This document shows, piece by piece, positions 2,829 to 23,092 of a stretch of DNA of 32,000 bases. The stretch is from Haloquadratum walsbyi C23 (GTDB lineage: Archaea; Halobacteriota; Halobacteria; Halobacteriales; Haloferacaceae): the NCBI RefSeq assembly GCF_000237865.1, contig NC_017459.1, forward strand, positions 960,001 to 992,000, read 5' to 3'. The position numbers and the translations under genes are program-made. Each line of letters starts with the position of its first letter. Positions within the stretch are counted from its first letter, which is position 1. Below the pieces are notes generated by a model. That model saw nothing but the letters and a program-made list of their open reading frames with translations. It searched no databases and was not told where the DNA came from.

Positions 2829-3289
2829 ACCAACCTCTACTCTGAACTAATTTTTCAAATATATTCTCACAATACTGCATTTATTTTATTTAATTCGCGA
2901 TTAGCAAAATGAAAAATGTGTATGAACGTTTCATACTGATTAGTGCAAGTCTTTACCGCCGTGATTATCCGTGTCGGTGATTGGAGCCGCTGAATCCGCG
3001 TCATTCGACACCGTCGGTGAAACTATTCGAACTAATCACTATCACGCATAAGATTAAAATCCTGAGTTTGCTACCGTCTTGCTACGCAGTATTATAAGGA
3101 AAGATGACCACACGATATAGTCTCGAAAATTTAACTATTCTATTATCCCTCGTTCATCAAAAATTCTTCATTCGGCGAAGATACGGTTGCTCAGTGATTT
3201 CGGATCTCTCCATGTAAACAAATATTAACCAAACTAATATCAAAATTACTAAATTTTCACACTTATACATGATTAAGGAGAATACCTGC

Positions 3290-3299
3290 GGGTTAAGCC
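3290..3299. repeat. target-site duplication (left copy) of the Tn5-like IS
   Basis: GGGTTAAGCC lies immediately left of the left IR. The identical 10-mer is at 4962-4971, immediately right of the right IR. Confidence 0.85.
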
Positions 3300-4961
3300 C
3301 TGTCTCTTACCCATAAGTCCTAATGGAAGAGTAGACGAACCAAGATTGGTAGATGGGGCGTCGCTCACGGAGTTGGAAGCCAGAACTCGATGAAGATGGG
3401 CAGCTGTGTGACATGGATGTTTCAGGATGGATTCAAACGGAGTTTCGATCAGCCGAGTTTGGAGACAAGCGCCTGAGTGACCGACTAGTACAACTTGGGG
3501 ATGAACTCGGCAGCTCGCCTGCCGAGTCCATCCCTGCTGCCTGCGGAGACTGGGCGTCCACAAAAGCTACATACCGATTTTGCGATAATGAGAGTGTGGA
3601 TCCCAACGAGATTCTCTCTGCTCACAAGCAGCAACAGCAATCAAGAGTGAGTCGGTCAGACGAACTCCTGATTGTCTCCGATACCACCGAACTCGTGTTT
3701 CCGAGACATCCCTCCAAGGAGGGTCTCGGTGATATTGGCAACTCTGAGATGGATCTCGAAGGTATCAAGCTTCACTCCACGATCGGAATCGATCCACGGA
3801 CCCATCGAATGACTGGGGTCATCGATCAGCAGCCGCTGATCGAGGACCAGCAGGCCGATGAGAAGTACGATGCCAACGGCAAAGCAGAGCCGATTCAACT
3901 TGACAGTGAACATGAGAAATGGAGCCGTGGCGACAGGCAAGCCAGAGACTGGCTTGCCGACGATATCCGCCCGCTATTTATCCATGACCGAGGCGCAGAT
4001 TCATTCGCGTTCTACGAGGAAGTCACCAGAGAGATGGAAAATGCTGGCTTCATCATCCGAGCGAGTCAAAACCGACGGATTTGGACTGATGATGGTGAAT
4101 CTGGAAAACTCTTTGACTGGAGCAGCGACCTTGCCGAGCAAGGTCGCAAAACAATCGAGATTCAACAGGGAGGTGGGCGCGAAGCGAGAACAGCGGAGTT
4201 GTCGATAGCCACTGGAACGTGTGAGTTGCGCGCGCCAAAGAATAATCCTGAACAAGAGGGTTCAATCGAGGTGAATGTCGTGAGAGTCGACGAGGTCGGT
4301 GAAAATGACGACCCGATTCAGTGGGTGTTGCTCACCACTGAATCGGTCGAAGAGTTTGAGGAAACGCTGACACTCATCGACTATTACGGCCTCCGCTGGC
4401 GAATTGAAGACTGGCATAAAGTGCTCAAGAGTGGCTGTAATATCGAAGAACGGCAACTGCAGACTTGGGAGCGGATGGAAGTGTTGTTGAGCATGTATTC
4501 AGTGATCGCGTGGAAAGTTCTGGAGCTACGAGAACTTGCTCGTGGTGATAGTTCAGTATCTCCGGCGGTCCTGCTGAGTGAGGCAGAGCGCACAATTCTG
4601 GAAACGAAATTTCCAGAATTGAGCGGTCAAGATGGGAAATCATACGCAGTGAGCGTGGCTAAACTCGGCGGTTATCTTGATCGTGGCTCAGATCCGCCAC
4701 CAGGGTGGGAGACGATGTGGAAAGGACTCCAGAAGCTACGCATGTGGGCTGAAGGATACGAACTCGGTGCTGAATGAGCCGCGAAGCGGGCTCATTTAGC
4801 AGAACCCGCCGAAATAACGAGTTCAACTGAGCTTTTCAAGCGGCTTCATGGATACTTCTCTAATCTTGGGCAGATACTGATGGAAATTTGATTGATTTCT
4901 TCTTTTCATGCCTGATTTGGTTGAAATTACCCTCTAGTATTGAGTTATGGGTAAGAGACAG
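3300..4961 (+). mobile_element. IS4-family insertion sequence of the IS50/Tn5-like type (1662 bp), apparently intact
   Basis: Perfect 17-bp terminal inverted repeats are present: CTGTCTCTTACCCATAA (3300-3316) and TTATGGGTAAGAGACAG (4945-4961). A 10-bp direct repeat flanks the element, and it holds a single DDE transposase ORF. Confidence 0.9.
3353..4777 (+). CDS. IS4-family DDE transposase (Tn5 Tnp-like)
   Basis: Catalytic contexts are LIVSDTTEL, FIHDRGADSFAFY and YYGLRWRIEDWHKVLKSGC (the Y-x2-R-x3-E-x6-K signature of IS4/Tn5 transposases). The true start may be the internal Met at 3413 (MDVSGWIQTEF...). Confidence 0.9.
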   Translation: MGRRSRSWKPELDEDGQLCDMDVSGWIQTEFRSAEFGDKRLSDRLVQLGDELGSSPAESIPAACGDWASTKATYRFCDNESVDPNEILSAHKQQQQSRVSRSDELLIVSDTTELVFPRHPSKEGLGDIGNSEMDLEGIKLHSTIGIDPRTHRMTGVIDQQPLIEDQQADEKYDANGKAEPIQLDSEHEKWSRGDRQARDWLADDIRPLFIHDRGADSFAFYEEVTREMENAGFIIRASQNRRIWTDDGESGKLFDWSSDLAEQGRKTIEIQQGGGREARTAELSIATGTCELRAPKNNPEQEGSIEVNVVRVDEVGENDDPIQWVLLTTESVEEFEETLTLIDYYGLRWRIEDWHKVLKSGCNIEERQLQTWERMEVLLSMYSVIAWKVLELRELARGDSSVSPAVLLSEAERTILETKFPELSGQDGKSYAVSVAKLGGYLDRGSDPPPGWETMWKGLQKLRMWAEGYELGAE

Positions 4962-4971
4962 GGGTTAAGCC
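4962..4971. repeat. target-site duplication (right copy) of the Tn5-like IS
   Basis: GGGTTAAGCC is identical to 3290-3299. Confidence 0.85.
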
Positions 4972-5048
4972 GTAGGATGAATCCGACACCCCGAAGGAAA
5001 TCTGCGCTGCAATAGCCATGCTGAGATTTGTTACTCCAGAGCTTGAAG

Positions 5049-5516
5049 TGACAGGCAAGCCTATCTATAGATAGGAATCAGATCGGGAACAGGGCAGGGC
5101 GATTCCGGTCACTCCGACGATGGCGGCCTGTCCGCCCCAAGCACTCAGACAGGAATCGGAACCCAGTCAGGTGAACGGTCGGTTCCTATGCTGAACCGGT
5201 GCAGATGCAAATGCAGTGCCCGACTGCTTGAAAACACCGCAGAAAGTAACTCCGAGTCCACAGAAGTCTGCCGGACTCCCCAGGGCAAAAACAACGTTGG
5301 GAGTCCGAACACGATAGAACATAGGAGTACCGGGGGCTGAGATGTGGCACTCCCAGCAGTCCCAGCAGTCCCACTCGACTCGCCACAGTCCGTGAACCCC
5401 ACACTGACTCTCACTGTGCCGGGGTTCGGTGGAACTGCAAACCTGAAATCTCCACCATTCACGCTCACGCTTACGCTCACGATTCCTCCACACGTTTGCA
5501 CAGAGGAGGATATCAA
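5049..5516 (+). repeat. GC-rich structured non-coding repeat, copy A (candidate PATE-like IS200/IS605-derived element or ncRNA)
   Basis: It is colinear on the same strand with 22614-23060. There are long identical blocks, for example 31 nt at 5113-5143 = 22672-22702. Conserved hairpins carry compensatory changes. No reading frame is conserved. The element ends GGAGGATATCAA at 5505-5516. That it is a repeat is certain; its functional class is inference. Confidence 0.6.
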
Positions 5517-5522
5517 TATGAC

Positions 5523-6056
5523 TCACCGGTTCGGTCCGTGAATCCATACTCGAACGGACCCACCAATCCCAACCGCCGCAGGTATCCCCCACACGGCAGC
5601 AGCGATCAAAGCAGGGAGCACAACCCACCCAATAGCAGCGACACCGGTAATAAATCCAAGTGAAACCCACGGGTCAGTCAGTTCAAGTGTTTCACTCAGC
5701 CCAATTCCGAGCACAGCGAACCCTCCTCCAGTAAGCGTTCCAAGACTGATAACAAGTGCAACAATACCACCGATTCCAAGTATATTCGCAACCACTCCTA
5801 TGCCGGTATTAAGTTGAGCGAGCTGTGTGTACGTATATACGATAGCTAAGCTAACCAAACCGAATGCAATGAACCCATATATGATGGCAACGAACGGCTG
5901 TGTCATTGACCGATCAAGTGCGATCTTGAGCTGCGATCCATAATGATATTGCACAGCACTTCCACCTCCAACGCCCAGGAAAAATGCACAAACAGCACGA
6001 ACGACTCCTGGTCCTGCAAATAGTTGTTCAAGTAAGGATTCTATAACCACATTCAC
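5523..6056 (-). CDS. hypothetical Gly/Ala/Ile-rich integral membrane protein (about 5 TM), directly downstream of folCP
   Basis: The 177-aa ORF has several hydrophobic helices. It starts 14 nt after the folCP stop on the same strand. No family was recognised. Confidence 0.6.
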   Translation of the reverse strand: MNVVIESLLEQLFAGPGVVRAVCAFFLGVGGGSAVQYHYGSQLKIALDRSMTQPFVAIIYGFIAFGLVSLAIVYTYTQLAQLNTGIGVVANILGIGGIVALVISLGTLTGGGFAVLGIGLSETLELTDPWVSLGFITGVAAIGWVVLPALIAAAVWGIPAAVGIGGSVRVWIHGPNR

Positions 6057-6069
6057 TCCTTATTATTTA

Positions 6070-8631
6070 TCATCTGTCATCTGCCTCTGTTTCTGCGTCT
6101 ATCTCTGTTGTATCATCTTCAGCCCGATATGGATGTTTTGCGGCAGCTGCTGCCCGAACTGCAGCCGCATTCTCGCCAGCATCATGTACCCGCACGACAT
6201 CGGCTCCGCGGTCTGCTGCGAGTGTGGTCACTGCAATCGTTGCTGAGAGTCGTTCATCATCCGGCTGGTTCATCGTTGCAAGCATTGATTTCCGTGAATG
6301 TCCAACTAGCACGGGACATCCAAGCGCTTCAAACTCATCAATTCGGTCAACCAGCTCAAACGACTCCGCCGGTGATTTCCCAAACCCACATCCTGGGTCA
6401 ACAATAATCTGATCACGTTGAATGCCTGCTCGCTCGGCACGAAGTAACTGCTCAGTGAGTTCATTCATAACATCTGTGACGACATCATCATACGTTGCAC
6501 GCCGGTCAGGATCGACTGGTGCTGAAAGACTATGCATGAGCACCAATTCAGCATCATGCTCGGCAACAACGAATGGCATCTCAGGATCATCGAATCCAGA
6601 GACATCATTAACGATATCAGCGCCTGCGGACAGCGCAGCATCAGCAACTGCTGCTTTCCGCGTATCAATGGATATTGGCACCTCTAAATTCGATAACGCT
6701 TCGATTACTGGCACAATCCGATCAATTTCCTCAGAAATAGGTACGGGCTCTGCTCCAGGTCGAGTACTTTCACCCCCAACATCAAGAATATCGACACCGG
6801 CATCAATCATCGTATTAGCCTGATCCATGGCTGCATCGACTGAATTGTATTCACCACCATCATAGAAGCTATCTGGTGTAATATTCAAAATTCCCATCAC
6901 CGCAGTTCGTGTATCGTTAAGCCCAGAGACAGAGACAGGTGTTGTTTCAGTGAGCTGCCGCTGTAACTGTGATCCAACATGACGCAGTCCGTGCCCAGCG
7001 TCAACGAGCGAGTCGGATAATGTCATCAAATCCCTTGTTGTTCCACCAAAGACAATCGCCGTGAGCTTCTGTGGACTGCCAACTGTTGTTTGATGACAGA
7101 AACCACCACCAGCAGCAACATGATCGGCGAATATTTCGACTTGTGCTGGACGAAGCGTTGTTCGAAAGCACTGTGTGGTTACGTCGGCTTTATCCGTCTC
7201 AAACATTGCTTCTGCGTACCCTGGGTTTACTCGCTCGCTTACAGCATTATCACTCTCTTTCCCAACGCCAATATCGATACTCGATGAGCGATTGACAGGG
7301 ACAAGCAATCGTGTCCATCTATCACGAGCCTCTGCAACAGCATATAGTGATCCTGTTACTAGCACGAGATCATCCGATCTAGCTCCAGCCGTTTCGATTG
7401 CTTCCTCTGTTGCCTCGGGAACTGATTGGATAGTCTCGACCGTTTTTGCATTCATTTGAAGAATAGGCGCCAACGTCTCTGCTGTTTCAGCGCGCTCGAC
7501 AGCTGGTTCTGTTGCGTATGCAGTCGTAATTGAAGGCAGTGATTGTATCATCGCCTCATGATCTTTGTCTTGCATCGCTGCGAAGACGACGTGTAACTCA
7601 TCATACTCGTATCGTTCGAGTAATGATCCAAGTGTTGCCGTTGCTCCAGGATTATGCGAACCATCAAGCACAACGCGTGGGCTGTGTGACATCAATTCAA
7701 ATCGCCCTGGCCACGTTGCCCCACGCAATCCAGTTTCGATAGTATCAATCGAGACATCTTGCACCTGCCGGGCAAGCGTTGCAGCAACCCCTGCGTTGGT
7801 TGCTTGATGAGCTCCAACAAGTGGTAGATGTGTTTCGACCGCCCACTCAGACCCAACGATTGAAACAGCGCTCTCGATTGGTGAGGATATACCTGTCTCC
7901 GTCGCAATAATATCAGCCTCAGAGTCACTATCATTCCCGACTGTAATCACATCCGTTTCCTCACGGATAGCAGCAAGTGCATCGCCTGTTGTTCCAGTAA
8001 TCAGAGGGGCTTCGCTTGGGGCAACCTGCGCCTTATCACGTGCAATGACATCGACAGTCTCACCCAGTAGCTCTGTATGTTCAAGACTAACACTTGTCAC
8101 AGCACTTGCAATCGGGTCGACAGCACTTGTTGCATCATATCGACCACCGATACCAACTTCAAGAATGGCGATATCAACATCCATCGCCGCGAAATGTGCA
8201 AGCGAAACAGCAGTTAGTGCCTCAAAATGTGTCGGCTCATCATTATCAGCCCGAAGTGTTTCGAGACACGGGACAAGTCGCTCAACATATTTACTCACAT
8301 GCTTCTTTGCGATTGTTCGTCCTTCCACGCGGATTTGCTCGCGAAAATCGTTTAATCCGGGCGACGTGAATAATCCGACTCGAAGACCGGCATCATCAAG
8401 AATTTGTTCAAGCATACGCGCGGTGCTCCCTTTCCCATTCGATCCAGCAATCTGTACGCAGTCGATTGAGGCATGGGGATTGTCAAGGTGTGCAAGCATC
8501 CGCGCGGTCGTCTCAACCCCGAGTTTCGGCCGACGCTGTTGGAGTCCAGTAAGCACGTCGGCAGCCTCATGATAGTCCATACCACGTATCGTTGATTGAC
8601 CCATGATTACATTGTCGCCTTCGTACGTCAT
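6070..8631 (-). CDS. folCP: bifunctional folylpolyglutamate/dihydrofolate synthase (FolC, Mur-ligase fold) fused to dihydropteroate synthase (FolP)
   Basis: The N-terminal half has the FolC P-loop IAGSNGKGSTARML. The C-terminal half has the DHPS pterin-binding motifs MGILNITPDSFYDGG, DVGGESTRPGAEPV and DPGCGFGK. The start may be an internal Met (MDYHEAADVL). Confidence 0.9.
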   Translation of the reverse strand: MTYEGDNVIMGQSTIRGMDYHEAADVLTGLQQRRPKLGVETTARMLAHLDNPHASIDCVQIAGSNGKGSTARMLEQILDDAGLRVGLFTSPGLNDFREQIRVEGRTIAKKHVSKYVERLVPCLETLRADNDEPTHFEALTAVSLAHFAAMDVDIAILEVGIGGRYDATSAVDPIASAVTSVSLEHTELLGETVDVIARDKAQVAPSEAPLITGTTGDALAAIREETDVITVGNDSDSEADIIATETGISSPIESAVSIVGSEWAVETHLPLVGAHQATNAGVAATLARQVQDVSIDTIETGLRGATWPGRFELMSHSPRVVLDGSHNPGATATLGSLLERYEYDELHVVFAAMQDKDHEAMIQSLPSITTAYATEPAVERAETAETLAPILQMNAKTVETIQSVPEATEEAIETAGARSDDLVLVTGSLYAVAEARDRWTRLLVPVNRSSSIDIGVGKESDNAVSERVNPGYAEAMFETDKADVTTQCFRTTLRPAQVEIFADHVAAGGGFCHQTTVGSPQKLTAIVFGGTTRDLMTLSDSLVDAGHGLRHVGSQLQRQLTETTPVSVSGLNDTRTAVMGILNITPDSFYDGGEYNSVDAAMDQANTMIDAGVDILDVGGESTRPGAEPVPISEEIDRIVPVIEALSNLEVPISIDTRKAAVADAALSAGADIVNDVSGFDDPEMPFVVAEHDAELVLMHSLSAPVDPDRRATYDDVVTDVMNELTEQLLRAERAGIQRDQIIVDPGCGFGKSPAESFELVDRIDEFEALGCPVLVGHSRKSMLATMNQPDDERLSATIAVTTLAADRGADVVRVHDAGENAAAVRAAAAAKHPYRAEDDTTEIDAETEADDR

Positions 8632-17846: not shown

Positions 17847-18499
17847 ATGGGAGAGTATCGTAGTCATGCAGATTCGGTTAGTTCCTGCAAGTATCGCCAC
17901 TCGGTTCTCGATGTCGTGGAAGCCGATATGCGAGAATTTTTGATGAGACTGCCGACCACTTCAGGCCTGTCTCTTACCCACAAATCGAGTCAGGATTTCA
18001 GCGGAATGGGATCGCCGAGCACGACTGAAATCCTCGGTATCTACAGTTTCAGGATCTCTTTGGAACAATTGTAGTGGAGTTGATTACCGGCGTTCTGTCA
18101 CCCCCACAGCCGATATCACTGTCTGAGTCGCTTCTCGCCTCGATTTGCTGCGTTCAAAATATCTCTGAGAGCGTCTGAAATGTCCGGTTACGACTCCACG
18201 AACTTATGGGTAAAAGACAGCACTTCAGGCACGGGAGTTTGGCGTTGGAGATCGCGGACGAAGACGAAGACGACCACGTACACTTGTTTGTGCAAACTGA
18301 CTCGAAGCACAGTCTAGCGGATATTGCTCGGCAGTTCAAGTTACACCCGGGTAAGCAGTTGCTGGAGCGGGATCCCGAGATTCGGGAGTCGTATTTCTGG
18401 GGTGGTGGATTCTGGACGGTAGAATACTACGTGGGAACGACGTGACGGGAGCGGTGTCAGAAAGTGGTTGAACGGTATATCGAGGAGACAAAACACTGA
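17847..18499 (+). pseudogene. tnpA: IS200-type tnpA (Y1/HUH transposase), disrupted by a MITE, a frameshift and an in-frame stop
   Basis: The left part reads ...CKYRHSVLDVVEADMREFL.... The right part reads ...LALEIADEDEDDHVHLFVQTDSKHSLADIARQFK...FWGGGFWTVEYYVGTT*RERCQKVVERYIEETKH, with the HUH motif HVHLFV and the catalytic-Tyr region YYVGT. The halves are separated by 17967-18220, the frames differ by 1, and there is a TGA at 18443-18445. Confidence 0.7.
17967..18220. mobile_element. 254-bp MITE with Tn5-like IS termini, nested inside tnpA
   Basis: The ends are CTGTCTCTTACCCACAA... and ...CTTATGGGTAAAAGACAG, which match the IRs of the IS at 3300-4961 with 1-2 mismatches. It is flanked by an identical 10-bp duplication CACTTCAGGC (17957-17966 and 18221-18230). 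It has no ORF. An internal 10-bp stem AGGATTTCAG/CTGAAATCCT is present. Confidence 0.75.
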
Positions 18500-18525: not shown

Positions 18526-18843
18526 CCCATGGTACTCCGTGAAACATTTTGAACCATCGGTTTCACACAACAGTATCGGCAGCTACTCTATGACAAGATT
18601 TTGGATTGAATTCCTCAATAAGTTTTCATGAGCAGTAGTGGGTCGGGGAACTCGGCTTCATAGGTTGTTTAGATATTAAGATCTCTCCATATTTCTCTAA
18701 AAATCATTTTGAGTTATAACATATCTAATCATTCAAATGAATAAAACAGCTCACAACGACGTACTGTTGCTTCCCGCCTCTGATTTGCCTGTTCTACCTA
18801 TCTCAGTAATTTGAGGAGTCGACACGCGATACTGCTTCTAATA

Positions 18844-19434: not shown

Positions 19435-20511
19435 TTATGACACGGTAATGTCAGTGTTTTCAATGACGGTCTGAACTTCCGTTCGAAGTGTTTGAACTTC
19501 ACTATACTGAGCGACTTTTGATGCCAGTGCATCGACAGAGAGTTCAACGAGTGCTTGTCTATCAATTGTATCGACTGTACCTGCACCTTCCGCCACCATG
19601 ATTGCTGCTCGCGTTCCGACATTAATCTGAAGCCGATCGCGTAACTCCCGGATTATTTCGACAAGCTGTCTGGTCTCAATGCCGATATCACCGTCAGTTT
19701 GTGCATCGACAATTTCAACCTCAGTTTCAAAGTCATAAAAATCCATATAGACACCGATAAGACGATCCAATAATGCATCTTGTGGTTCATGCACGCCAGC
19801 GTACTCGACAGAGTTTGAGGTTAATATCGCTCTGAATTCGGGGTGGACATCAACATACCGTGATTCACCACGCTGTCCTGGAAGCTCTAAAACGCCTTCT
19901 TCAAAAACAGATAATAAGACATTGTTTGCAACAGGCTTGGTTCGTGAGAATTCATTGTATACAAGTGTTGCACCTTCTTCAACGGCAAGTGTCAGTGGAT
20001 TATCAACCCATCGATCCTTGACTATCTCTTTACTCTTCAATACATTGTGTATATACTGATCACGCTCTGATATCCGCTCTTTTTCTGCGTATTCACCGAC
20101 AAGATCGCTTGTTGAGAGTTCTGTGTCACCATTAATCCAGACAACCGGTTGATTACGCTGACGGGCAACATGCATCGCAAGCGCGGTTTTTCCACAGCCC
20201 GTCGGACCAATTAAATGAACCGGACGGTCAACGGTGAGCCATCGTTCCATTCGCTGGCGAACGTTCTTCACTGCATCAGTCTCGATGAATTCACGCTCTT
20301 TTGGAATGAACTCATCTTCAAGCTCCCTAGTAGTGCCAGCGCTTCTGGACGTTCCTGGCTGGTTTGACCCTGATGTTGTGGTTGAACCACCATCGCTTTC
20401 GGCTCGTCTTAAACGCTCGATAGACTTATTTTCACGACGACGCTTCTTATTTTCGCGTGATGATCGAATCTGTGATCCACGCACCTTCCGCTCGCGAGAG
20501 TTCTTTGTCAT
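19435..20511 (-). CDS. gvpN: gas vesicle protein GvpN (AAA+ ATPase)
   Basis: It has Walker A LIGPTGCGKTALAMHVA and Walker B region TLVYNEFSR, plus a basic Lys/Arg-rich N-terminal extension. Its ATG overlaps the gvpC stop (ATGA). Confidence 0.9.
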   Translation of the reverse strand: MTKNSRERKVRGSQIRSSRENKKRRRENKSIERLRRAESDGGSTTTSGSNQPGTSRSAGTTRELEDEFIPKEREFIETDAVKNVRQRMERWLTVDRPVHLIGPTGCGKTALAMHVARQRNQPVVWINGDTELSTSDLVGEYAEKERISERDQYIHNVLKSKEIVKDRWVDNPLTLAVEEGATLVYNEFSRTKPVANNVLLSVFEEGVLELPGQRGESRYVDVHPEFRAILTSNSVEYAGVHEPQDALLDRLIGVYMDFYDFETEVEIVDAQTDGDIGIETRQLVEIIRELRDRLQINVGTRAAIMVAEGAGTVDTIDRQALVELSVDALASKVAQYSEVQTLRTEVQTVIENTDITVS

Positions 20512-21662
20512 TGTATTTCGTCATCTGGTCGGAGTGGGACATCCTCACCATACTCCGCACGATAATCTTGAATCGACATGCCATGTGTCTGCAGATGCGG
20601 TTCTGTGATCGCATGATAATGTTCACCGCAAACACGGCAAGTGACCATACCATCTGGAGTATCAATTGTTAGTTCAGTAGTGTCTGTTGTTGTATCTGAC
20701 TCTGACTCAGCATCAATATCAATACTCTCTGTTGTACCTTCACTGGTGCTGATATCATCCTCAGTTATAGATTCGGCTGAGGCGGAAGTTGTCTCGAATT
20801 CTGCCTCAGCCCTACTCACGTTTCCCTCATCACCTACTGTATTTACTTCTACTTGCTCTGTTTGTTCTGATTCAGACTTGATCTCAGCATCACTCTCAGT
20901 GTCCGACATTCCATAGAATGTTTCGACGTATGTAGCGAACTCCTCAGCTGTCACCTCAAACTCAGTGCTGAAATCCTCGATGTCGGACTCAAATGCACCG
21001 ACTGCATCAATTAATGCTTGAACTTCGACAGTATGGAACTCTGATTGATACGACTCAAATGCATCCGTAACGGCTTCAAATGCCTCTTTTTCTGCAGCGA
21101 CATCAGCATGAATTGCATCAACATCAGCGGCGAATGCCTTAGAATACGCATCAAATGCTTCTTCGACGTCATCAAATGCATCCTCAACTGAGTCAATGGC
21201 TGTGAGGAGGTCATCGATATCCTGAATCTGAGCGACATCAGCATCGAATGCCTCAGCATATGCATCGAATTCCGCACCTGTTTCAGTAATTGCAGTCTGG
21301 AATTCCTCAATCGCCATAAGAAGATGATTTACATCTTGTAACTCAGAAACATCAGCATCAAACGTATCTTGATATCTCTCAAATGCAGCGCGAAGAGCCG
21401 CGATATCGTCCTGACGTTGGGAAACATCCTGAAGAACTGCAGCCACTGCTGCGTCGAATGTATCATTATACTGGACGAATACATCTCTCGCCTCTGCAAT
21501 CTCTGTCTCGAATGTCTCAAACGCCGCGTGGTACTCACTGACGTCGCGTTTTGTCTCAACGTCTGCTGCGAAGTCATCAGCATACCCTGCGAATTCACGC
21601 TGGGTTGTTCTAAACTCTTCAGAGGTTGCCTCTATATCGTCGCGTTTTTTTCTTACACTCAT
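20508..21662 (-). CDS. gvpC: gas vesicle protein GvpC (acidic, 6-7 imperfect ~33-38-aa repeats) with a C-terminal Cys2His2 zinc-finger-like domain
   Basis: Repeats are of the type (E/A)F(D/E)xYxxxFxADVxxxxDV.... It lies between gvpA and gvpN. The C-terminus reads CRVCGEHYHAITEPHLQTHGMSIQDYRAEYG. Confidence 0.85.
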   Translation of the reverse strand: MSVRKKRDDIEATSEEFRTTQREFAGYADDFAADVETKRDVSEYHAAFETFETEIAEARDVFVQYNDTFDAAVAAVLQDVSQRQDDIAALRAAFERYQDTFDADVSELQDVNHLLMAIEEFQTAITETGAEFDAYAEAFDADVAQIQDIDDLLTAIDSVEDAFDDVEEAFDAYSKAFAADVDAIHADVAAEKEAFEAVTDAFESYQSEFHTVEVQALIDAVGAFESDIEDFSTEFEVTAEEFATYVETFYGMSDTESDAEIKSESEQTEQVEVNTVGDEGNVSRAEAEFETTSASAESITEDDISTSEGTTESIDIDAESESDTTTDTTELTIDTPDGMVTCRVCGEHYHAITEPHLQTHGMSIQDYRAEYGEDVPLRPDDEIQ

Positions 21663-22019: not shown

Positions 22020-22398
22020 CTCTTGGTCTCATAATTATTTTGCCGATAATGAGTGTCATAGATTCTTAATGTGGCTCTATGCCGTATTTTGATTTTACAT
22101 TATAAACATACTATACCATATTGATTTGAGCATGAAATAGTTGTTATACCTATGAAGCTGATATTAAATATATTGAGGTCGTCGGGCTCTTGAGGTAAGA
22201 TATGAGTAAATCCTCAACTTCTTATATGAGTGACTGGCATGTTAGATGAGACAGGATTGAAAATAAAGAGAAATATTATCTTACAGAATCTAAAGGGCAT
22301 GTCCTGAGGGCTTGACCCTGCGGCGATTCACTTGGACGTATCTGTATCATCTATTTCATCTCGCCACGATCAGTGATATGGAGATTACGCTTATATGC

Positions 22399-23060
22399 TG
22401 AGCAGGCGCAATACCACGCCCTTTAGTGATTCAACAAACTTCTGGGTGAACTAATTCACTCAGTCGATGCGAGAGAACTATTCTGACTGATGCATGTCTA
22501 CTCAAGCACCCACTTCTTCTGTGAGCTACTACAGGCCGTGGATACGCGCCGTCACGCCCTCCAAAATCCTACTGTCATCGCTCGATTTAAATTTCAAAAT
22601 ACACATATTTAAATGACAGGCAATCACACAATAAAAGAGGAATCGGTTGGAAACAGAGCGATTCCCGCCAGTCCGACGATGGCGGCCTGTCCGCCCCAAG
22701 CAATAAGACAATCATCGGAACCAGTCTGGTGAACGGTCGGTTCCGATGCTGAACCGATGCAGATGCAGATGCTGTGCCCGACTGCTTGGAAGCAACATTG
22801 AAAGTAACTCCGAGTTTGCTAACGCCTGCCGAACTCCCCAAGGCAAAAACAACGTTTGGACGCCGTACATGGTCGAGAATAGGAGTAGGAGTACCGGCGG
22901 CTTGGCACCGCCAGCAGTCCCACCCGCCCCCGCACCCGTCTCAGACCGCGAACAACCCTTCAGATTCGCACTGGCTGGTTGTTCGGTGGGGGTGGGAGTG
23001 TTGAACCTGAAACTCCCACCGCTCGGGATTCCTCCGCGTGAACCCGGAGGAGGATGTCAA
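22399..23060 (+). repeat. GC-rich structured non-coding repeat, copy B (core 22614-23060; possible full element from 22399)
   Basis: The core is colinear with 5049-5516. The left terminus TGAGCAGGCGCAATACCACGCCCTTTAG (22399-22426) and right terminus GGAGGATGTCAA (23049-23060) are both shared with the 47-bp mini-element at 16318-16364. Confidence 0.6.
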
Positions 23061-23092
23061 AAACAAAACCAATACTGTAATATCGACACATC

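Follow-up and report, generated by a model that had tools for sequence, protein, structure and literature searches.

Two G+C-rich repeats of about 450 nt lie on the same strand of a 32,000-nt stretch of the genome of Haloquadratum walsbyi C23 (the window; NC_017459.1, nt 960,001–992,000, forward strand, position 1 being its first base). Identical blocks alternate in them with diverged blocks in which base pairing is kept, which raises the question of what kind of element they represent, and whether a protein, a DNA structure or an RNA is being preserved. An initial annotation, made from the sequence alone, had favoured selection on a folded nucleic acid and had put forward an IS200/IS605-derived element without open reading frames (ORFs). 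This proposal was borne out, as the termini of the second repeat match those published for HqIRS56, apart from the left hairpin loop, and tnpB-bearing relatives share the same ends. Both segments, copy A (~5048–5516) and copy B (22613–23060), are very probably copies of a non-autonomous IS200/IS605 element, a palindrome-associated transposable element (PATE) of the HqIRS56 type, and its transcript would be a guide scaffold like the omegaRNA of TnpB. Much of this is already known, because the family, both loci and the nested insertions were catalogued in 2011 (PMC3119063) and the idea of omegaRNAs in PATEs was published in 2023 (PMC10055086). What may be new is a conserved, structured 5' domain specific to PATEs, and the breadth of the family across Halobacteria.

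Extent and anatomy of the two copies

A MAFFT pairwise alignment and a repeat search agree that A and B are colinear on the same strand; the latter found two long blocks, one of 167 nt with 83% identity and one of 69 nt with 87%. The positions and motifs reported in the initial annotation all proved exact. These include the 31-mer at 5113–5143 (= 22672–22702) and four other identical blocks, the arms GAACCCC/GGGGTTC (5394–5400/5421–5427) of copy A and their counterparts CGAACAACC/GGTTGTTCG (22949–22957/22977–22985) in copy B, the terminal hairpins TCCTCC...GGAGGA (A) and TCCTCCG...CGGAGGA (B), the TGA at 5338–5340, and both small tandem duplications of copy A. The starts given there (5049 and 22614) are those of the conserved core and not of the element, as both copies reach about 100 nt further 5', to a TTATA. 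Two nested mobile elements, ISHwa2 in copy A and HqIRS42 in copy B, had been overlooked.

The left end of copy A is uninterrupted in strain HBSQ001 and other strains (TTATA, then CATGATTAAGGAGAATACCTGCGGGTT(A/C)AGCCGTAGGATGAATCCGACACC...) and is split by ISHwa2 in C23, so that copy A comprises 3268–3299 plus 4972–5516 (577 nt without ISHwa2). Copy B spans 22396–23060 (557 nt without the nested HqIRS42), since its 3' 45-mer is the published HqIRS56 end and a TTATA with the left end is found at 22391–22423; there TTATA is followed by TGCTGAGCAGGCGCAATACCACG..., then by the 108-nt HqIRS42 in the hairpin loop, and then by ...AGGCCGTGGATACGCGCCGTCACGCC. The features are as follows (R1 is a covariance model described below).

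3263–3267, plus strand: TTATA target and presumed target-adjacent motif (TAM), directly 5' of copy A; the same pentamer precedes the PATEs of the family, the tnpB-bearing relatives and HqIRS56 (Table S9, PMC3119063)
3268–3299, plus strand: copy A left end, part 1, to the loop of the subterminal hairpin (CCTGCGG...); contiguous with nt 4972 onward in HBSQ001 (L003) and other strains
3300–4961, plus strand: ISHwa2, a Tn5-type insertion sequence (IS) of 1662 bp, nested in the left-end hairpin of copy A and outside the PATE (ends, Pfam, Table S5)
4972–5047, plus strand: copy A left end, part 2, comprising the hairpin's 3' arm and a box rich in A/T, ATTTGT... (alignments)
5048–5243, plus strand: copy A 5' structured module, about 175 consensus positions, PATE-specific (nhmmer E = 5e-39; covarying helices)
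5244–5516, plus strand: copy A 3' module, an omegaRNA/sotRNA-like scaffold with the right-end hairpin, ending in TCAA (model R1)
5517–5536, plus strand: candidate guide flank of copy A, 20 nt nominal, suggested by the TnpB/omegaRNA model (PMC10055086, part used here)
22391–22395, plus strand: TTATA, the target and presumed TAM, 5' of copy B; in the empty-site alleles (L009, L011) CGCTTATA is joined to AACAAAACC
22396–22423, plus strand: copy B (HqIRS56) left end, part 1; the first 23 nt, TGCTGAGCAGGCGCAATACCACG, equal the published HqIRS56 5' end and the subsequent hairpin-loop bases differ
22424–22531, plus strand: HqIRS42, a small mobile repeat of 108 nt in the loop of the copy B left-end hairpin, outside the PATE; missing from the orthologous HBSQ001 copy (L010)
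22532–22612, plus strand: copy B left end, part 2, in which a TTTAAA box, a putative promoter, precedes the conserved core (alignments)
22613–22801, plus strand: copy B 5' structured module (nhmmer E = 3e-41; covariation)
22802–23060, plus strand: copy B 3' module, an omegaRNA/sotRNA-like scaffold with the right-end hairpin, ending in GGATGTCAA (model R1; Rfam sot0042)
23061–23080, plus strand: candidate guide flank of copy B, 20 nt nominal, proposed on the same model; it directly follows TTATA in L009 and L011

The ISHwa2 copy has Tn5-type inverted ends (CTGTCTCTTACCC), matches the Pfam families Tnp_DNA_bind, DDE_Tnp_1 and Dimer_Tnp_Tn5, is flanked by a 10-bp target duplication (GGGTTAAGCC at 3290–3299 and 4962–4971), and is missing from HBSQ001 (AM180088.1). 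Both nested elements are listed as 'in_repeat' in Table S5 of PMC3119063: ISHwa2 in row 190 (C23 963300–964961, 1662 bp, overlap 10, i.e. window 3300–4961) and HqIRS42 in row 194 (108 bp, C23 982424–982531, i.e. window 22424–22531). Microsatellite-like hexamer expansions are also visible, (TGCAGA/T)n in the 5' module (5198–5214) and, shortly before the hairpin of the right end, (CGCTCA)n (5460–5481); their copy number differs between copies and strains (also in L007, L104, L124 and L135).

Identity as HqIRS56-type PATEs

HqIRS56 is described in Table S9 of PMC3119063 (Dyall-Smith et al. 2011) as a homogeneous PATE of 532–574 bp, paired with ISHwa21, with the termini TTATA followed by TGCTGAGCAGGCGCAATACCACGATCTTCAGGCCGTGGATACGCGCCGTCA... 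at the 5' end and ...CCACCGCTCGGGATTCCTCCGCGTGAACCCGGAGGAGGATGTCAA at the 3' end. The last 45 nt of copy B are identical to the latter and its 5' end is the same except for the hairpin loop; it likewise has the TTATA target, and its 557 nt fall within the published range. Copy A measures 577 nt once ISHwa2 is left out, which agrees with the heterogeneous group of HqIRS56-type elements (466–688 nt). HqIRS56-type PATEs number about 82 in C23 and form the most abundant PATE family in H. walsbyi (PMC3119063). The parts of that paper used here cover the termini, the copy numbers and the targeting by other elements; for this family they describe neither an interior consensus structure nor a 3' half homologous to the end of tnpB, and they name no other host genera.

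Of the traits by which PATEs are recognised in the same source, these copies show the following: no terminal inverted repeats, hairpins at both ends, the TTATA target, a length too small for a transposase gene with no sign of coding, and termini in common with transposase-bearing elements. The left ends (CATGATTAAGG... and TGCTGAGCAGG...) are not reverse complements of ...GGAT(A/G)TCAA, and in the repeat search the two ends of neither copy were linked by an inverted pair. Subterminal hairpins are present at the left ends, CCTGCGG...CCGTAGG in A and CCACG...CGTGG in B, and in 102 sequences the helix of the right end shows 97% pairing.

Two metagenome contigs (L009, L011) carry the flanks of copy B without the element, in the form ...CGCTTATA followed by AACAAAACCAATAC..., the right flank following TTATA at once; the target is not duplicated, and a run of A leaves a 1-nt ambiguity. 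No empty site was found for copy A. Precise presence or absence 3' of the target, without target duplication, is a hallmark of IS200/IS605 elements. Miniature inverted-repeat transposable elements, or MITEs, and repetitive extragenic palindromic elements (REP/REPIN) are, like copies A and B, short, abundant, non-autonomous and mobilised in trans. However, MITEs have, at their termini, inverted repeats related to a DDE transposon, and a target duplication, neither of which the two copies have, and REPINs, which RAYT transposases mobilise, are far shorter. By contrast with the PATE copies, the nested ISHwa2 displays both inverted ends and a 10-bp duplication.

Relatives with tnpB and homology of the 3' module to guide-RNA scaffolds

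No tnpB gene was found in either copy or in the rest of the window, so any TnpB would have to act in trans. Elements with the same termini that do carry tnpB, the existence of which had been left as a point to check, were found. Metagenome contig L013 has an intact tnpB of 438 aa (Pfam OrfB_IS605, Cas12f1-like_TNB) adjoining the same right flank as copy B; the full IS1341-type element lies at 6603–8130 of this contig, on the minus strand of the locus. The one site therefore has empty, PATE and tnpB-element alleles in the population. The L013 element is 83% identical over 42 nt to the left-end class of copy A and 90% identical over 41 nt at the right end, and its last ~185 nt have the colinear motifs AAAGTAACTCCGAG, GATAGGAGTACCGG, TGGCAC and CTGCAAACC in common with the PATE copies. 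A scan of species-representative genomes with the right-end pattern returned at least 120 loci in many Halobacteria, and about 30 among the loci listed bear tnpB, the stop codon lying mostly 51–69 nt before the right end. The same TTATA, both left-end classes (those of A and B) and the same right end are seen in L013 and in over 15 tnpB-bearing loci. In the sample of loci retrieved, PATEs outnumber their tnpB-bearing relatives.

The initial annotation had also raised the possibility of a TnpB guide-RNA scaffold ending at the TCAA boundary, and the homology this implies is supported. Covariance model R1 was trained on 28 tnpB-linked 3' ends and on no PATE. Applied to the window, it gave exactly two matches, both on the plus strand and both covering model positions 1–185 of 185: copy B at 22802–23060 (80.9 bits, E = 1.7e-23) and copy A at 5244–5516 (32 bits, E = 1e-8). 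The last 259–273 nt of the copies thus correspond, as homologues in both sequence and structure, to the final ~185 nt of IS1341-type elements with tnpB. This stretch takes in the 3' end of the gene and the right end, and it is the region which yields sense-overlapping transcripts (sotRNA) or omegaRNA. Among 102 distinct R1 matches, PATE and tnpB-linked, double changes occur in 32 of the 39 model pairs, and the share of paired cells is 91.6%, as against 40–55% when the partners are slid, in an alignment (A5) fitted to the model's own structure.

An independent model points the same way. Rfam RF02656 (sot0042), the sense-overlapping transcript of a Halobacterium IS1341-type tnpB, matches copy B over its full length (22856–23051, 30.6 bits, E = 2e-6), below its gathering score of 88, and its consensus start, AaGuAUCuCCGAguCC, resembles the conserved AAGUAACUCCGAGUC which opens the PATE 3' module. 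At gathering thresholds Rfam gave nothing in the window; of the matches at permissive E-values only sot0042 was credible, and mir-2765, rpfG, malK-II, snR40 and others were set aside as noise.

Compared with the TnpB omegaRNA (also right-end RNA, reRNA) or sotRNA, the PATE 3' module has the same strand and the same position, ending at the TCAA of the right end, and it contains the motifs AAGUAACUCCGAG at the 5' start, AUAGGAGUACCGG, a UUGGCAC hairpin, GCAAACC and the terminal hairpin. These RNAs are reportedly the subject of work by Gomes-Filho et al. in 2015, Karvelis in 2021 and Meers in 2023. The PATE scaffold differs in carrying an extra hairpin of ~50 nt (CGGACUCCC...GGGAGUCCG) and expansions, which bring it to 259–273 nt rather than ~185, in having no tnpB in cis, and in being preceded by a PATE-specific structured module of 175 nt. 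A published parallel is found in Geobacillus stearothermophilus, where PATE-like elements of the IS605 family 'often encode omegaRNAs' that are used in trans and need the TnpB of other elements (Meers et al. 2023, PMC10055086). Those elements are bacterial and unrelated in sequence, and in the part of that paper used here no large conserved extra RNA domain is reported for them. The two loci are not mentioned in the transcriptome papers on H. walsbyi that were consulted.

Tests for a protein

That selection acts on a folded nucleic acid rather than on a protein was upheld by three negative results: the ten longest ORF translations of both strands have no credible Pfam match (two returns lay far below the family cut-offs), column variability has no 3-nt periodicity, and tblastn with TnpB returned only matches with E > 6. 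A small protein or decayed gene on either strand, such as the minus-strand ORF at 5145–5516, nevertheless had to be considered. Minus-strand ORFs of 84–167 aa are present, gene callers have placed ORFs over the orthologous copies in some metagenome contigs, and a hydrophobic minus-frame peptide, AWGGQAAIVG..GIAL, is common to A and B. This peptide was first taken for a C-terminal membrane anchor. It was rejected because the frames are inconsistent (reading frames and stop codons differ among the copies), there is no Pfam match, and the substitutions in relatives are non-conservative for a protein but compensatory for a helix: where the helix CGAU/AUCG becomes CGGA/UCCG, with both sides changed in 11 of 37 sequences, the peptide goes from IV to SA or SE. 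A protein-coding explanation is thus very hard to credit. The plus frame of the 3' module retains short traces of the TnpB C-terminus (SNSES, DRSTG).

Covariation and the folded strand

The compensatory pairing noted between A and B holds far above chance once relatives are added, and the structural alignment that had been called for gave strong covariation across the family. The cores of 25 members, from GTGACAGG to TCAA and typically 403–412 nt, were aligned, and their RNAalifold consensus has 76 pairs. These are 95.6% paired, compared with 31–46% when partners are slid, and 27 of the 76 have double changes, compared with 5–14; the covariation score is 0.238 against 0.02–0.07 and none of 500 shuffles attained the observed values, in controls which remove the effect of relatedness only in part. 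For the helix GAACCCC/GGGGTTC (A) and CGAACAACC/GGTTGTTCG (B), the relatives supplied the further variants GAGCAUCC/GGAUGCUC and GGACUA/UAGUCC. The stem GGAATC/GATTCC, described as closing loops of different length, fared less well. Its letters and positions are exact and RNAalifold keeps it, but it has one-sided changes only and no covariation. On our reading of alignment A3 it competes with an overlapping helix which does covary (xGGAA/UUCCx plus GGC/GCC), the compensatory variants of which were seen by eye only, as MAFFT shifts this helix between subtypes.

Paired positions contain 150 G-U cells and 33 A-C cells, and the consensus folding energy is -71.1 kcal/mol for the plus strand and -52.5 for the minus strand. 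Folding thus favours the plus strand, which is the sense strand of tnpB. This strand is also the one used by TnpA, and the bias therefore cannot separate an RNA from top-strand DNA. The pairing might serve single-stranded DNA (ssDNA) only, with the folded top strand bringing the ends together for TnpA during peel-and-paste transposition and with no functional RNA at all; top-strand end hairpins are indeed used in IS200/IS605 transposition (cited in PMC3119063 and PMC10055086, in the parts used here). We regard this as improbable. The known requirements of TnpA stop at the subterminal hairpins, the 3' module is homologous to the region of experimentally observed sotRNA/omegaRNA transcripts, and G-U dominates at several pairs (GU in 18 of 25, UG in 19 of 25), a combination that is stable in RNA but a mismatch in DNA.

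The PATE-specific 5' module

Among the retrieved loci, an nhmmer search with the first ~175 consensus positions identified at least 65 instances, every one in a PATE context and none inside a tnpB-bearing element. At least ten genera are represented: Haloquadratum, Halorubrum, Natrinema, Natronomonas, Halobellus, Halovenus, Haloterrigena, Halosimplex, Halorarius and Halonotius. An origin of the module was sought in the tnpB coding sequence, in the 5' untranslated region of tnpB elements, and as a second omegaRNA, and no blastn, nhmmer or R1 match outside PATEs was obtained; there is no counterpart in Rfam either.

The module is structured. The P5 hairpin has at least seven different stem sequences at one position, and the helix around the invariant hairpin GGCGG-CCUGU-CCGCC covaries. 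A 5' ACAGG (5051–5055; 22616–22620) is complementary to the CCUGU loop (5126–5130; 22685–22689), one pair of this match having two G-C and two G-U variants in 37 sequences, which hints weakly at a possible pseudoknot. A separate covariance model of the module (R2) was dropped, since it captured only 14 pairs, the variable hairpins being misaligned.

It is possible, if rather doubtful at this stage, that the module represents a distinct and undescribed structured RNA domain, fused upstream of the omegaRNA scaffold in PATEs only, which could give gene-less elements an advantage or be put to use by the host. It may, for example, stabilise the guide RNA or aid the competition for scarce TnpB.

The preservation of this module also bears on whether the copies are simply what internal deletion has left of tnpB elements, inert and with no present function, their similarity being due only to recent duplication and gene conversion. 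Core deletions that turned IS605-type transposons into PATEs are documented (PMC3119063, part used here), the plus-strand traces of the TnpB C-terminus fit such an origin, and the C23 and HBSQ001 orthologues differ patchily, as gene conversion would lead one to expect. Against this, the full core of ~410 nt, 5' module included, is kept in at least ten genera with compensatory changes in many helices, and the seven strain-specific insertions of HqIRS56 in each strain (Table S8, PMC3119063) point to recent mobility. Inert remnants are accordingly a decidedly unlikely explanation.

A possible mechanism and the points against it

If the copies are PATEs with a guide-like transcript, the literature on IS200/IS605 elements and TnpB (PMC10055086, part used here; PMC4615843) suggests the following course of events. 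The Y1 transposase TnpA, supplied in trans, would move the element as ssDNA by means of the two end hairpins; indirect signs of such movement are the alleles with and without copy B and the strain-specific insertions of Table S8 (PMC3119063). Transcription would start from the A/T-rich box of the left end, a putative promoter (ATTTGACAAT in PATEs; the box at ATTTGT... in copy A) similar to ATTTTACAAT, the presumed promoter box that precedes tnpB in L013. The resulting RNA of ~410–470 nt would read through the TCAA right end into the flank, its 3' part acting as the omegaRNA scaffold and the flank as the guide. The TnpB of one of the few intact ISHwa21-type elements might load this RNA in trans; C23 has three ISHwa21-type elements with intact transposase genes (Table S8, PMC3119063). 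After excision, TnpB would cut the vacated TTATA with its flank, and homologous recombination in this polyploid archaeon would restore the element.

Several points weigh against this interpretation. The start of transcription, the read-through into the flank and the loading onto TnpB are all steps that we infer. All IS200-type tnpA genes of C23 are pseudogenes (PMC3119063, part used here), and the present source of TnpA is therefore unclear. Both left-end hairpins are disrupted by nested elements, so that copies A and B may, and probably do, no longer move, a state in which transcription is still conceivable. As to the structural evidence, the covariation controls correct for relatedness only partly, alignment A5 has the structure of the model built into it, and the plus-strand G-T wobble pairing would suit a folded top DNA strand equally well. 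Neither copy attains the sot0042 gathering score, and copy A reaches just 32 bits with R1 and has no Rfam match at E ≤ 10.

A remnant of an IS200-type Y1 transposase gene, tnpA, lies within the window at 17900–18446 (Pfam Y1_Tnp, E = 1.7e-13; HUH motif HVHLFV, EYYVGT). What interrupts it, at 17964–18220, is a MITE of 257 bp, probably HqIRS35, whose ends are ISHwa2-like and which has a target duplication of 10 bp, CACTTCAGGC. Such a remnant fits the published statement on the tnpA genes of C23. Downstream of the remnant, at 18530–18637, a small mobile repeat (HqIRS43/HqIRS42 'switch repeats', Table S5 row 192, PMC3119063) is found in a G+C-rich palindrome, matching the reported habit of these repeats to target the end hairpins of IS605-type elements.

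Significance for the family

For the HqIRS56-type family, the results give direct computational evidence that the tnpB-linked guide-RNA scaffold has a covarying homologue in the 3' half of the PATE. They also place the family in many Halobacteria and not in Haloquadratum alone. Should the 5' domain indeed help gene-less elements to make use of TnpB, it would illustrate the way in which elements that are not autonomous compete for RNA-guided nucleases, and it could be of use in designing stabilised guides for TnpB editors of haloarchaea. For loci A and B themselves little changes.

Genomic setting and variation between strains

The same-orientation copies A and B bracket about 17 kb containing the folate genes and the whole gas vesicle (gvp) cluster, and the stretches in which they are identical do not exceed 31 nt. 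Recombination between A and B could in principle delete the gas vesicle cluster; no sign of such a deletion was seen. HBSQ001 (AM180088.1) has the flanking proteins of both copies in unchanged form, as do many contigs from saltern metagenomes.

Orthologous PATEs of C23 and HBSQ001 (A versus L003, B versus L010) are 94–95% identical, with indels and clustered substitutions, while their 2-kb flanks are ~99% identical. The patches of divergence match variants present in other copies, a pattern which suggests gene conversion between paralogous PATEs. In several metagenome contigs (L001–L007 to the left of A, L012–L014 to the left of B) the left-end side runs into entirely different genes and the right flank is constant, which could reflect real recombination at PATEs or chimeric assembly across a repeat of ~80 copies. 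A scan of viral contigs gave a single, irrelevant match.

Lastly, degenerate direct repeats with a 21-nt phase were observed at 21055–21462, within a minus-strand ORF of 384 aa (20508–21662) beside gvpA and an AAA_5 gene. These are likely to be the internal protein repeats of a GvpC-like protein.

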